Of a stretch of 64,000 nt of DNA, positions 1,398 to 6,018 are shown piece by piece. The notes below the pieces were generated by a model that was not told where the DNA came from, did not search any database, and saw nothing but the letters and a program-made list of their open reading frames with translations. A program made the position numbers and the translations under genes. This DNA is from Phycisphaerae bacterium (GTDB taxonomy: Bacteria; Planctomycetota; Phycisphaerae; UBA1845; Fen-1342), in contig JASFQK010000017.1 in the NCBI GenBank assembly GCA_050115495.1, forward strand, positions 32,001 to 96,000. Direction: 5' to 3'. How positions within the stretch are numbered: the stretch's first letter is position 1; every line of letters starts with the position of its first letter.

Positions 1398-1404
1398 CTG
1401 TTAT

Positions 1405-1532
1405 GGCTAGGGGTGGTCCGCCGCGGCGGACATGAGATCCGGGCACGGTCGGTCCGGAGACCCTGTGAACCTGATCAGTGCCAGGCCGACGGTCGCCGGC
1501 AGTGGTGGCCGCGGTCGACTGCGTAGGGAAGC
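1405..1532 (+). ncRNA. TPP (thi-box) riboswitch, variant with extended P5
   Basis: CTAGGGGTG, P3 hairpin, TGAGA, P3a hairpin, ACCC, GAACCTGATC...GCGTAGGGAAG; lies upstream of the thiC operon. Confidence 0.9.
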
Positions 1533-1536
1533 ACCC

Positions 1537-1575
1537 ATGCCACACGCATTCGCATTACACGAGTTCATCCAATGA
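1537..1575 (+). CDS. putative 12-aa leader peptide MPHAFALHEFIQ
   Basis: ATG 5 nt after AGGGAAG (aptamer 3' strand); its TGA overlaps the ATG of the next gene (ATGA at 1572-1575). Confidence 0.4.
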   Translation: MPHAFALHEFIQ

Positions 1576-2672
1576 TTGACCCGAGCACGCTGCGGGAGCT
1601 CTTCGAACACAACGACTGGGCCCGCGACAAGCTTATGACGCTGGCCGCCGATTTGACGGATGCCCAGCTCGACCGGCCATTCGAGATGGGCGAAGGGTCG
1701 TTGCGGGCGACGTTGCGGCACTACTACGGCGCTGAGCGTATCTGGGCGCAGCATGTCCGGATGCCCGGCTGCGAGGCGTTCCCGCATTCGCGCACGCTGG
1801 AAGCGGTCAGCGACCTGCGCCACACCGCCGACATCCTCGCCGAAGTGCGCCGCCGATGGCTGGACACCCTGCCGCCCGAAGCCATGGGGCAGACCGCCAC
1901 GTACACCACGAGCAAGGGTGAGACGTACACGACGCCGCTCGGGGATATCCTGCTGCACGTGTGTAACCACGGATTCCACCACCGCGCGCAGGCCCTGAAC
2001 ATGCTGCGGCACCTGGGCGTCGAGACGCCGATGCTCGACTTTCTGCTGATGAAGCTCGAACGACCGACGATCCCGATCACGCCCACGTTCAGCGATGGGC
2101 TGCGGGCGTTGGGACTGACCGTCCCCGAACAGACCGTCGCGGCGCGGCCGCTCGACCCGGAAACCATGCGTGCCGGCCACGCCTACGGCGACATGGCCAA
2201 TGAGCGTCTGTGCCGCCTGGCCGTCGAGTTGAGCGACGAGCAGCTCGACCGCCCCTTCGAAATCGGGTTGGGCACGCTCCGCAAGACGTTGCTGCACATT
2301 CGCGACGCCGAGCAGTGGTGGTACGAGAACTGGATTAACCCTGCGCCCGTTGAGTTCGCGAAGCTGCCGCCGGAGACGTCGATAGGCGACTTGCAGCGGC
2401 TTTTCGCCGAGACGACCGAGCGGCGCGATGCCTTCGTCGAGCAGGTTCGCGGACCGGACCTGGAGCGCGTCGTGACCGCGGAGGTCCGGCCGGGCGCATG
2501 CCTGAGCTTCCGTCTGGGGGAAACCATGCTTCAGCTCTTCGGCCACGGGACGCATCACCGGGCCCAGGCGCTGAACATGCTGCGGCACCTGGGAGCCGAG
2601 GTGCCGGCACTGGATTACATCGCGTGGCTGTGGGGGCGACAGCCGGGCGTCGCGGGGAACGAAAGGAGATAA
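1572..2672 (+). CDS. tandem (two-domain) DinB/YfiT-family metalloprotein
   Basis: Two repeats of LDRPFExGxGxLRxTLxH...H(G)xHHRAQALNMLRHLG. Confidence 0.85.
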   Translation: MIDPSTLRELFEHNDWARDKLMTLAADLTDAQLDRPFEMGEGSLRATLRHYYGAERIWAQHVRMPGCEAFPHSRTLEAVSDLRHTADILAEVRRRWLDTLPPEAMGQTATYTTSKGETYTTPLGDILLHVCNHGFHHRAQALNMLRHLGVETPMLDFLLMKLERPTIPITPTFSDGLRALGLTVPEQTVAARPLDPETMRAGHAYGDMANERLCRLAVELSDEQLDRPFEIGLGTLRKTLLHIRDAEQWWYENWINPAPVEFAKLPPETSIGDLQRLFAETTERRDAFVEQVRGPDLERVVTAEVRPGACLSFRLGETMLQLFGHGTHHRAQALNMLRHLGAEVPALDYIAWLWGRQPGVAGNERR

Positions 2673-2675
2673 CCG

Positions 2676-4226
2676 GTGACGCAGCTTCAATCCGCCCGTC
2701 AGGGCACCATCACCCCGGAGATGGTCCGGGTCGCCGCGCGAGAAGGCGTCGCGCCCGAGTTCATCCGTGAACACGTCGCCGCCGGCCGGATCATCATCCC
2801 CGCCAACAAGCGGCACCTGGCGGGTTCGAGCGGCAAGGAACCGTCGCAGCGTGCGGAATTCACGATCGACAGCTCGGCGGTCGGCCATCCCGGCTGTACG
2901 GCGAAGGCGGCGCTATGGGTCAACCAGACGGTCGCCCAGCGGCGACAGTGGCTCGACGACGCCAACTACTGCCGCGGCGAGCGGGCGGCCAAACGGCTCG
3001 ATCCGATCGGCATCGGCCGGGCGCTGACCACCAAGATCAACGCCAATATCGGCGCATCCCCCGTTTCCAGCGACACCGCCCACGAGGTCGAGAAGCTCCG
3101 CTGGGCACAGCTCTACGGCGCCGACACGCTGATGGACCTGTCCACCGGCGGTGATCTGGATGAGTGCCGCCAGCAGATCATCGACCACAGCACGATCCCC
3201 ATCGGTACGGTGCCCATCTACAGCATGATCGTCGGCCGCACTGTCGAGGAGCTCGACCACGACACGATCCTGAAGACGATCGCCCACCAGGCCGAACAGG
3301 GTGTCGACTACGTCACAATCCACGCCGGTATCCTGCGCGAGCACCTGGGGCTGATCCGCCGGCGGGTGTGCGGGCTGGTCAGCCGCGGCGGATCGCTGCT
3401 GGCCAAGTGGATGGTGCACCATCTCCAGCAGAATCCGATGTACGAGCTGTTCGACGAGATCAGCGCGATTCTGCGGCAGTATGACGTGGCATATTCGCTG
3501 GGCGACGGGATTCGGCCGGGCTGCCTGGCGGATGCGAGCGACCCGGCGCAGATCGCCGAGCTGCACGTGCTAGGCGAGCTGGTGCAGCGGGCGCGCGAAG
3601 CGGGCGTGCAGGCGATGGTCGAAGGACCGGGCCACATCCCGCTGAACGAGGTCGCCTGGAACATGGAGACCGAGCGGGCCGTGTGCGACGACGCCCCGTT
3701 CTACGTGCTCGGACCGGTGGTCACCGACGTTTTTCCCGGCTACGACCACATCACCAGCGCGATCGGGGCGTGCGAGGCGGCGCGGGCCGGGGCGGCGATG
3801 CTGTGCTACGTCACGCCCAAGGAGCACGTGGGCCTGCCCACGGCTGAAGACGTGCAGCAGGGCTGCGTGGCGTACAAGATCGCGGCCCACGCCGGCGATA
3901 TCGCCCGCGGCATCCACGGGGCGCGGCAGTGGGACGACGACATGAGCCGGGCCCGGGCGACGCTAAACTGGACAACGCAGTTTGAGCTCGCTTTCGACGG
4001 CGATACGGCCCGCGGGCTGCGCGGGGCCGAGCTGCCCGCAGATAGCGATTATTGTGCGATGTGCGGCCGCGACTGGTGCAGCCTGCGAACCAGCCGTACC
4101 GTAATGACCAGTAGCGAGCCGGACGATCCGGATGAGCCGCCCGCGGCGGGTGGCCCACAACGGCGACGGCCGAGCTGCTACGAAGAGCGGCGCCCGGGCG
4201 CGGGCGGCAGCGCTCAGGTCACGTGA
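2676..4226 (+). CDS. thiC: phosphomethylpyrimidine synthase
   Basis: KINANIGAS, MDLSTGG, MVEGPGH, GYDHITSAIG, LCYVTPKEH and C-terminal CAMCGRDWC Fe-S motif; downstream of a TPP riboswitch. Confidence 0.97.
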   Translation: MTQLQSARQGTITPEMVRVAAREGVAPEFIREHVAAGRIIIPANKRHLAGSSGKEPSQRAEFTIDSSAVGHPGCTAKAALWVNQTVAQRRQWLDDANYCRGERAAKRLDPIGIGRALTTKINANIGASPVSSDTAHEVEKLRWAQLYGADTLMDLSTGGDLDECRQQIIDHSTIPIGTVPIYSMIVGRTVEELDHDTILKTIAHQAEQGVDYVTIHAGILREHLGLIRRRVCGLVSRGGSLLAKWMVHHLQQNPMYELFDEISAILRQYDVAYSLGDGIRPGCLADASDPAQIAELHVLGELVQRAREAGVQAMVEGPGHIPLNEVAWNMETERAVCDDAPFYVLGPVVTDVFPGYDHITSAIGACEAARAGAAMLCYVTPKEHVGLPTAEDVQQGCVAYKIAAHAGDIARGIHGARQWDDDMSRARATLNWTTQFELAFDGDTARGLRGAELPADSDYCAMCGRDWCSLRTSRTVMTSSEPDDPDEPPAAGGPQRRRPSCYEERRPGAGGSAQVT

Positions 4227-4305
4227 CAGTCCTTGCCAGAGAGGTGTGCGCAGATCCATGGCCGGTCGCGGGGTGACATCAGCGGGGCGCCCGCCGTGGA
4301 GAGGG

Positions 4306-6018
4306 ATGCGGACGCGGCCGGCGCGGCGGCGCCGTCCATCAGGCGGACGCGCTGTGCCCTTCCTGCTGCTGGTGGTTGCGCTCGTCGCGCTCGTGCTGGG
4401 TGGACGCTGGTACTGGCGGCGGGCGACGCTGCGCTGGGCCGTGTCGGGGGCACTTTCCGCGCTGGCGACCGCCGACTCGCCCGCCGCGGAGGCGACGGCG
4501 CTGAGCAACTGGGCGCGGCAGACGTCGTCCGACTGGGCCGATCGCCGCGAGGAGTTGGTGCAGCTTCTGTGCAAGCAGGTGCGGGCGGGCGATCTGCATG
4601 GCCGCAAGCTGCTGACGTGGTTGACGGGGGCTGATTACGGCGATCGGGCGGACGACTGGGAGCGCTGGCACGAGGCCCGCGAGAAGCAGCGCGACGAGGG
4701 AGCGGAATACGCCGGCGAGGGTGGCGTGCGGCTCAAGCCCGGGTGGGAGGCGCGGATCGGTCTGACGGCGTGGTTCACCACGATTCTGCCGCTGGATGGC
4801 CAGATCTACGTGGCCACGCTGGGCATGGCGTACGACGATCCGCGCGATGAATACGACGGCGTGGTTCGCGTTGACGGCGTCAGCGGAGAGGCGGCGTTCA
4901 TCTTTCAGCCGAGCGACGGGCCGGAGCGCGACATCGTGGGTCTGGCCGCCGGCGACGGTTGCCTGTTCGCCGGCTGTCGCAACGGCGTCGTGTATTGCCT
5001 CGAACCGGACGGGACCGTGCGGTGGGAGGGACGCGCCGGAGCGGCGATCGACGGGCCGCCGCTGGCGATCGACGTGAACGGCGACGGCGTCATCGACGTG
5101 GCCGTGGTCACCGTCGAAGGCCGCGTGGTGGCAATGAGCGGTCACAGCGGGCAGACAATCTGGCGAACGCGAGCGTCGGGGTCATCCGGCGTGGGCGGAG
5201 CCGGCGCGGTGCTCACCGCCGGTAACCTGCTGGGTGGCACCGGGCGTGAAATCGTGGTGACGACGCCAGCCGGCGCGATGCGCGTTCTGGCGGCGCGGAC
5301 CGGCAACGTGCTGTGGGAGAACACGCTCGGGGCGGGCTGCCTGGCCGGAACGATCGTGACGGCGAGGCTGCGCGGTGGTAGTCCACCGGCGTACGTCGCC
5401 GATCGCCAGGCGCGCATCTGGACGCTGTTGCGGGCGGCGCCGGCGATGCAGACCGTGCTGTCCTGGGACCTTGTGCTGCACGAACAAGATGGCATCGTCG
5501 CGGGCCTGCGGACGCTCGCCCGTCGTGATCAGCCACCGCTGGTCATCGCCTGTGTCTCCGGCGGCGGCGACTGGGACGGCAGCGTCTGCGCTGCTGAGCC
5601 GGGCGGTGTGCGCTGGCGCTTCTCCCCTGGCGGCTATATCTGGGCCGCGCCGGCGCTGGCCGATCTGAACGGCGACAAGGAATCCGAGATCGTTCTCGCG
5701 ACGGCCGGCCGCAACGACGCCGAGACAGGTGCCGGACTGATCGTCGTGCTGTCAGCGTCCGGCCATTGCCTTCGCCGCATCACGCTGCCCGCAGCGCCGA
5801 CGTGCTCGCCTATCATTTCCGACGTTGACGGCGACAACGAGTTGGAAGTGCTCGTCGCCGACGCCGGCGGTTGGCTGCGCTGCTTCGATACCGGACGTAT
5901 GGGCGCGGTCGAATGGAGTGTCGGTGGCGGAGATAGCCACAACACACGCGATGCAGAAAACGCGTACAGATACGGCCAGGTTCCGCACGGTGTGCAGTGG
6001 CGCTGGACGCCGGAATGA
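4306..6018 (+). CDS. membrane-anchored PQQ-like/FG-GAP beta-propeller protein
   Basis: N-terminal TM helix; repeated DxNGDG/DVDGD motifs and GxxxW propeller blades; GGAGAGG RBS before ATG 4306. Confidence 0.7.
   Translation: MRTRPARRRRPSGGRAVPFLLLVVALVALVLGGRWYWRRATLRWAVSGALSALATADSPAAEATALSNWARQTSSDWADRREELVQLLCKQVRAGDLHGRKLLTWLTGADYGDRADDWERWHEAREKQRDEGAEYAGEGGVRLKPGWEARIGLTAWFTTILPLDGQIYVATLGMAYDDPRDEYDGVVRVDGVSGEAAFIFQPSDGPERDIVGLAAGDGCLFAGCRNGVVYCLEPDGTVRWEGRAGAAIDGPPLAIDVNGDGVIDVAVVTVEGRVVAMSGHSGQTIWRTRASGSSGVGGAGAVLTAGNLLGGTGREIVVTTPAGAMRVLAARTGNVLWENTLGAGCLAGTIVTARLRGGSPPAYVADRQARIWTLLRAAPAMQTVLSWDLVLHEQDGIVAGLRTLARRDQPPLVIACVSGGGDWDGSVCAAEPGGVRWRFSPGGYIWAAPALADLNGDKESEIVLATAGRNDAETGAGLIVVLSASGHCLRRITLPAAPTCSPIISDVDGDNELEVLVADAGGWLRCFDTGRMGAVEWSVGGGDSHNTRDAENAYRYGQVPHGVQWRWTPE

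Follow-up and report, generated by a model that had tools for sequence, protein, structure and literature searches.

A conserved structural variant of the TPP riboswitch with an extended P5 in an order of Phycisphaerae

In TPP riboswitches, L5 is a conserved U-turn loop, while P3 and P3a are the variable parts (PMC2258182, PMC4260697), and the docking of L5 on P3 is treated as part of the closing of the aptamer (PMC2018614, PMC4775224, PMC3764141). What becomes of such an aptamer when its docking loop is interrupted? The question is raised by a leader in a 64,000-nt stretch of DNA from a Phycisphaerae bacterium (called the window below). A sequence-only reading had placed the two strands of P5, CAGT and ACTG, at positions 1476-1479 and 1518-1521, with 38 nt between them, and the motif AUGAGA at 1432-1437. 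These letters and positions are exact, so that a P5 of 4 bp encloses 38 nt instead of the usual 6. We conclude that the RNA is a genuine structural variant among TPP riboswitches, conserved but under-annotated in its lineage, and typical of that lineage rather than unique to the window. Our overall reading, to which we assign a probability of roughly 0.78, is that of a TPP-class riboswitch in which a 33-nt hairpin, P5a, has been inserted in L5; it likely binds TPP, and it is predicted to act as a translational repressor of a unit composed of a short upstream ORF (uORF), a DinB-family gene and thiC.

An intact aptamer core below the Rfam threshold

The leader lies in the intergenic region 1349-1571, downstream of a nucleotidyl-transferase gene (8-1348) and upstream of a tandem DinB-family gene and thiC (Table 1). 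thiC is the second gene behind the riboswitch, which thus holds a leader position before a thiamine biosynthesis gene. No other TPP-like match to RF00059 was found in the assembly (5.97 Mb, 92% complete). One metatranscriptome run yielded a single 160-nt contig covering 2523-2682, the leader remaining uncovered. Further downstream, an ORF of 628 aa encoding a beta-propeller protein (PQQ_2, FG-GAP; 4132-6018) is listed with a start that overlaps the 3' end of thiC by 95 nt; its real start is probably located further downstream.

Table 1. Features of the riboswitch and of the genes behind it (positions in the window)
Feature	Position	Strand	Basis
TPP riboswitch aptamer	1399..1546	+	RF00059 model 1-105, 40.2 bits
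P1, 5' strand; pairs with 1530-1534	1404..1408	+	RF00059 alignment; standard pairs only at 1406-1408/1530-1532
P2, 5' strand (AGGG, bulged G, U); pairs with 1458 and 1461-1464	1409..1414	+	Alignment, pair counts
P3 hairpin; closing pair G-A, not G-C	1415..1432	+	Alignment, pair counts
J3/2 UGAGA, pyrimidine-sensing T-loop-like motif	1433..1437	+	Invariant in 30 of 30 relatives; U39-A43 in PMC3764141
P3a hairpin, optional, 6 pairs	1439..1457	+	Alignment, pair counts
P4, 5' strand CCUG; pairs with 1524-1527	1470..1473	+	Standard pairs in 23 of 23 at three positions, 21 of 23 at the fourth
P5, 5' strand CAGU; pairs with ACUG 1518-1521	1476..1479	+	Letters, pair counts
Internal loop, 5' side GCCA, read as L5 remnant; 3' side G1517	1480..1483	+	Register count
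P5a hairpin: 5 + 9 pairs, bulged A1489, loop GCAG 1499-1502	1484..1516	+	Folding, register of relatives
J5/4 CG, pyrophosphate-sensing (C77 and G78 in thiM numbering)	1522..1523	+	Invariant; PMC3764141
uORF, 12 codons (MPHAFALHEFIQ); TGA overlaps the DinB ATG (ATGA, 1572-1575)	1537..1575	+	ORF reading
DinB-family protein, tandem, 366 aa; first gene predicted to be regulated	1572..2672	+	PF05163, 1.6e-39, two stretches
thiC (HMP-P synthase), 516 aa	2676..4226	+	PF01964, 4.5e-175

A permissive Rfam scan of positions 1300-1650 gave an alignment with the full-length RF00059 model (E-value 1.2e-6 for the stretch and 4.8e-6 for the genome). The earlier claim that every core TPP element is present is borne out by this alignment, since the ligand-site nucleotides are intact and all helices and conserved single-stranded segments are in place, the interior of P5 excepted. 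P1 to P5 could be arranged around a three-way junction by the full-model alignment and by pair counts on two alignments, A1 and A2. In the interior of P5, 8 model positions were skipped against 40 nt of sequence, which is the kind of large P5 insert that had been expected from a search with this family.

At 40.2 bits, the aptamer is 14 bits short of the gathering cut-off of RF00059 (54.3 bits), an annotation threshold that is operational and expresses no biological property. For this reason the Rfam scan in gathering mode returned no match over the whole window. The sources of the shortfall that can be seen in the alignment are the 40-nt P5 insert, two non-standard pairs in P1 and the G-A pair in P3; it is the P5 extension together with P3a that holds the score below this threshold. 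R1, a covariance model of the lineage made from 30 of its sequences, gave 117.4 bits and spanned 1399-1537.

The architecture is that of the E. coli thiM TPP riboswitch, or THI element (RF00059; PDB 2GDI, cited in PMC3764141), with the same three-way junction and the same P1-P5. Also shared are the UGAGA of J3/2, the two strands of the pyrophosphate sensor (CCUGAUC and GCGUAGGGA), a P5 of 4 bp, and a thiamine gene downstream. Unlike thiM, where P5 is capped by a hairpin loop of 6 nt, the window has a 4x1 internal loop continuing into a 33-nt hairpin, and it departs from the RF00059 norm by a G-A pair at the base of P3. AUGAGA is found in place of CUGAGA because of this closing pair (1415/1432), which is G-A in 13 of the 30 relatives and G-C in the other 17; it is a lineage polymorphism that leaves the sensing nucleotides untouched. 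P1 has 3 standard pairs in the window in the register of the model, compared to 5 in most relatives, and this was counted against our main reading. When the ligand-stabilised fold was sought among unconstrained minimum free energy folds, the aptamer was not recovered and P5a was obtained alone (z = -1.67 for 1399-1546, z = +0.17 for 1385-1600).

P3a is an optional stem-loop, present in 552 of 907 TPP riboswitches (Barrick and Breaker 2007, PMC2258182), and the window has it too. The top of this stem is conserved as R-C-G-N-N-C-G in the window (1439-1457) and its relatives (columns 65-90 of alignment A1), most family members having a bulged purine, a C-G pair and a 4-nt loop, which is unusual for a variable stem.

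The nucleotides described as highly conserved are UGAGA in J3/2, U59, G60, C77, G78 and A80 (PMC3764141). All ligand-site positions on this list are found in the window (1433-1437, 1472-1473, 1522-1523 and 1525) and are invariant in 30 of 30 aligned relatives, as are UGAGA, CCUGAUC and GCGUAGGGA taken whole. The suggestion that the ligand might have changed is not upheld by these nucleotides. As far as the letters of the binding site can tell, the RNA is a member of the known TPP class and likely still senses TPP, and they point to no new ligand, class or biology.

The P5a hairpin and what is left of L5

The 38 nt between the strands of P5 had been proposed to fold on themselves, and in this the proposal stands: their folding energy is -24.5 kcal/mol, compared to -16.7 +/- 2.7 kcal/mol for 200 dinucleotide shuffles (z = -2.9; 2 of the 200 as good). 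The pairing that had been drawn, with a 7-nt bulge, CGAC/GTCG and a 3-nt bulge, has to be given up, as it reaches -15.7 kcal/mol against -25.0 kcal/mol for the register common to the relatives. The latter has a 4x1 internal loop GCCA/G, followed by GGCCG/CGGUC and a bulged A, and the upper helix of P5a, CGGUCGCCG/UGGUGGCCG around GCAG, is identical in the two candidate folds. Nor does the hairpin replace L5, as had been described: it is inserted, and a 4-nt segment on the 5' side and a purine on the 3' side stay as an internal loop. The inserts of 36 relatives, each compared with 200 dinucleotide shuffles, had a mean z of -2.21, with negative values in 34 of the 36 and values below -2 in 20.

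The register was determined on the 24 sequences starting CAGY-GNCN, by counting pairs outward from P5. Registers with three extra nucleotides on the 5' side (3/0, 4/1 and 5/2) had 69 to 74% of the cells paired, compared to 33 to 47% in the 13 others, and the 4x1 register was the best, with 124 of 168 cells. On alignment A2, made with MAFFT from 23 of these 24 sequences, the six basal pairs of P5a were 75% paired, and five of the six varied on both sides. Covariation among the relatives' leaders, which had been put forward as a check on the insert, was indeed found at this place: the score was 0.259, compared to 0.105 for shuffles (none of 500 reached the observed value) and to 0.024-0.112 for slid partners, a figure that is valid for this subgroup only, because the subset was picked by its 5' motif. 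We conclude that P5a is a real helix, of which the structure is conserved across the order while sequence and length are free to vary. Some of the inserts are branched (L032 and L034), and no conserved terminal loop or tetraloop of P5a was seen by eye in the folds of the relatives. An origin of the 38-nt insert from a repeat or a mobile element was rejected, a single copy of the segment being present in the genome when up to 3 mismatches are allowed (reversed control, 0).

P5a resembles P3a (PMC2258182) in being optional, peripheral, and variable in length and sequence. P3a, however, is located at the P2/P3 junction and is remote from the docking loop, whereas P5a interrupts the loop of the long-range contact; also unlike P3a, it is rare outside the phylum (3 of 105 among the matches listed).

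In the thiM aptamer, L5 meets P3 by the stacking of A69 on C24, and its final nucleotide, G72, is directed at the thiazole ring (PMC2018614); U68-U71 contact P3 in a way that resembles a tetraloop and its receptor (PMC3764141). Within the phylum, canonical L5 loops follow the pattern N-U-C-R-N-R. No hexaloop with a UNR U-turn is found in the window, where the remainder of the loop, once P5a is set aside from the 38 nt, is GCCA/G. We examined this junction in 122 distinct extended sequences. P5 had four standard pairs in 102 of them and three in 20. The four nucleotides following its 5' strand started with G in 86 (GNCN in 43, GNRA in 17, other GNR in 26), and the nucleotide preceding its 3' strand was a purine in 115 and, within the GNCN subgroup, G in 24 of 24. 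At the second position of the junction loop, no conserved U was present in the 24 CAGY-GNCN sequences, a point that was also counted against the main reading.

With the hexaloop U-turn absent and no conserved U at loop position 2, the known form of the L5-P3 contact is not available to these RNAs; if the dock is kept, it would have to differ in detail, the U of the U-turn not being conserved in the subgroup. We infer that P5a entered L5 at a site flanked by loop positions 4 and 6 and that the junction loop represents the remainder of L5. This remnant may take over the docking on P3, or modify it, and P5a itself would be a peripheral extension, either stabilising or merely tolerated. A bolder version, which we put forward as tentative and do not favour, is that these RNAs form a subclass closing the aptamer by a GNCN- or GNRA-like turn of 4 nt in the internal loop, or by the packing of P5a beside P3. 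If this were true, such a different closing contact might confer distinct folding kinetics, a distinct TPP set point or a distinct discrimination between thiamine phosphates.

Occurrence within the order and beyond

RF00059 was searched in 61 genomes of the same order (G000 included). A match at E <= 0.01 was obtained in 37 of them, and a score above the cut-off in 3, so that the RNA is indeed missed by the standard model at its threshold, as had been predicted. Of the 38 matches, 36 had a P5 region of 19 to 126 nt and 2 were canonical. The canonical ones (L002 and L003) are 97 nt long, have 12 nt between the P5 anchors, that is, an L5 of 6 nt, and each precede a Thi4 gene. The extended matches precede thiC directly, a DinB-family gene or, in one case, Thi4; the first ORF downstream encoded ThiC in 21 of 34 scanned relatives, a DinB-family protein in 7 and Thi4 in 3. 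Clipping by the standard model, another consequence that had been foreseen, is observed at five loci with long inserts (L032, L033, L034, L036 and L038), where the match ends inside the insert. At two loci, the first ORF behind the riboswitch was not a thiamine gene: a small nucleotidyltransferase (PF01909) in L037 (577-906) and a DUF6429 protein in L038 (468-806). Lying between leader and thiC, these ORFs possibly belong to an inserted cassette that resembles toxin-antitoxin systems.

When 151 genomes of the order were searched with R1, 120 had a match. Among the 97 further matches that it provided, both anchors could be located in 87, every one of which had a P5 region of 23 to 108 nt. The 3' anchor was not found by pattern in the remaining 10; in 8 of these, inspection by eye showed an insert starting right after CCUGAUC and overrunning the extracted piece or, for L401, the end of the contig, and the other two (L404 and L406) are weak matches. 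The total for the order is therefore 135 matches, of which 123 are P5-extended, 2 are canonical and 10 have no parsed 3' anchor. In the aligned relatives the cores are near-invariant, and the inserts have no common sequence. What is special to the order is that the whole of it uses the P5 extension for the thiC leader. Some R1 matches lay close together, with three of them within 2.5 kb in one genome (G025, contig C10, 39572-42051) and two within 1.3 kb in another (G211, contig C56, 5781-7084); they may represent TPP riboswitches arranged in clusters or in tandem, or leaders that were duplicated.

A search with R1 in 150 other genomes of the phylum gave matches in 31 genomes. For 29 loci of these other genomes the P5 region was canonical (12 nt) in 24 and extended (23 to 34 nt) in 5, the extended ones coming from three families, two of them in the same class. 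Metagenome contigs were searched with an exact-core pattern, allowing a gap of 8 to 38 nt, and a TPP-like upstream half was recognized by a regular expression. At least 120 matches were obtained, and among the 120 listed, 105 were TPP-like; the gap was 12 nt in 102 of them, and 24, 28 and 32 nt, with a hairpin, in the other 3. This agrees with the earlier remark that length variation in P5 is unusual.

The exact-core pattern was also applied, with a gap of 19 to 49 nt, to one genome per species, and at least 80 loci were obtained. Of the 80 loci listed, 36 exceeded 30 bits with R1. Many of these are from Planctomycetota, and others are from Halomonas, Billgrantia, Chromohalobacter, Shewanella, Polaromonas, Thiomonas, Minwuia, delta-proteobacteria, Chloroherpetonaceae and Ktedonobacterales (Chloroflexi); all of them have a P5 of 4 bp, an internal loop and a hairpin. 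Among 20 P5-extended examples from other taxa, 11 reached the Rfam gathering score. Whether long P5 extensions might already be common in RF00059 thus receives a divided answer: the extension is rare (a few per cent), yet it recurs in several phyla and is partly inside the Rfam annotation. Like the window, the extended RF00059 matches of other taxa have a 4-bp P5, an internal loop (about 4x4 or asymmetric) and a hairpin of 20 to 47 nt. Unlike the window, they have CCGG, CCAG or CUCG as P5 and other loop sequences, and universality within a taxon is a property shown for none of them. As both P5 and the loops differ in sequence, these extensions are probably independent or very old.

Predicted regulation and alternative readings

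The ATG of the uORF is 7 nt behind the GGGA of the aptamer. In 27 of 38 relatives an ATG was found 0 to 12 nt behind the aptamer, compared to 0 to 9 of 38 in six control windows of equal size. This ATG is the start of thiC at five loci (L007, L008, L027, L032 and L036) and that of the DinB gene at L011. At six loci including the window (L001, L006, L010, L023, L028 and L035), it opens a uORF of which the stop overlaps the main start by 4 nt; these uORFs have 12 to 56 codons, start 4 to 9 nt behind the aptamer and end with ATGA or GTGA, and their peptides are unlike. No terminator-like or sigma-70-like site was detected in 1250-1750 by a scan for simple consensus forms. In a crude fold of the flank duplex, run without a control, at least two of the three letters of the ATG were paired in 16 of the 27 relatives; the optimum for the window was a different pairing.

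These observations are consistent with a translational OFF switch. TPP binding would stabilise P1 and P4, whose 3' strands are directly before ATG 1537; lying within the footprint of a ribosome at this ATG, the stabilised helices would block its access. Repression would then be relayed to the DinB gene, and likely to thiC, through the overlapping stop and start, an arrangement that suggests control by translational coupling. Ribosome-binding signals are poorly defined in planctomycetes, which is why occlusion is something that we infer. A DinB gene between the riboswitch and thiC was observed in the window and in 7 of the 34 scanned relatives, as a tandem form in the window, L011, L018, L028 and L035 and as a single one in L005, L006 and L019; by this position, the DinB protein would come under thiamine control in the lineage.

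Several other explanations of P5a were considered. It might be a neutral expansion segment, which arose once in L5, is tolerated, and drifts without a role in sensing. The range of insert lengths (19 to 126 nt), the branching of some inserts and the absence of sequence conservation in stem and terminal loop are what such drift would leave, and canonical riboswitches without the insert work in relatives (L002 and L003, before Thi4). On the other hand, the insert is kept in 123 of the 135 matches, no thiC leader has reverted to a hexaloop, compensatory changes keep the helix, and the junction loop is conserved. Because an inserted helix must stay a helix anyway, this conservation speaks weakly against neutrality, which we regard as possible but, on balance, doubtful. 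P5a might instead serve the expression platform, for instance by base-pairing with the start region in the ligand-free RNA, or offer a site to a trans-acting factor. There is a precedent in eukaryotes, in which a splice site is paired with part of P4-P5 as long as the ligand is absent (PMC2258182). P5a, however, has no conserved sequence for a protein to read, and a role of this kind appears very improbable. P5a was rejected as an anti-start or anti-terminator strand, as its duplexes with the 40 nt behind the aptamer were no better than those of shuffled inserts (mean z = +0.15; 0 of 36 below -2).

The remodelled loop could also have shifted the specificity or affinity of the aptamer, which would then respond to HMP-PP, TMP or thiamine, or else to TPP with a strongly shifted set point. 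L5-P3 docking has been tied to tight, phosphate-dependent binding (PMC4775224), and it is the docking loop that is changed. This reading is nevertheless improbable, since all pyrimidine- and pyrophosphate-sensing nucleotides are invariant, the gene context is thiC, the commonest target of TPP riboswitches, and the same extension is carried by otherwise ordinary RF00059 matches in other phyla. That the RNA should be a decaying relic, broken by the insertion and no longer functional, is hardly credible: although its score is under the cut-off, its P1 is weak and P3 is closed by a G-A pair, 120 of the 151 genomes searched in the order have this architecture, the core is invariant, and the insert is no repeat. 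A TPP riboswitch carrying P5a within L5 is thus the reading that we retain.

A P5 extension is undescribed in the TPP-riboswitch literature that was searched, including the accessible parts of PMC2258182, PMC4260697, PMC11751092, PMC2018614, PMC4775224 and PMC3764141, and an earlier mention elsewhere is possible. We consider the variant moderately interesting, both for the study of RNA structure and for the curation of Rfam. More than 100 natural sequences with a helix-interrupted L5 make up a ready set for probing the need for the L5-P3 contact. In this order, standard pipelines overlook the thiC riboswitch almost entirely (3 of 61 genomes, compared to 120 of 151 with the lineage model), and surveys of vitamin B1 would, as a result, wrongly score a mostly uncultured order as being without TPP riboswitches; the addition of P5-extended members to the Rfam seed would mend this gap in annotation.
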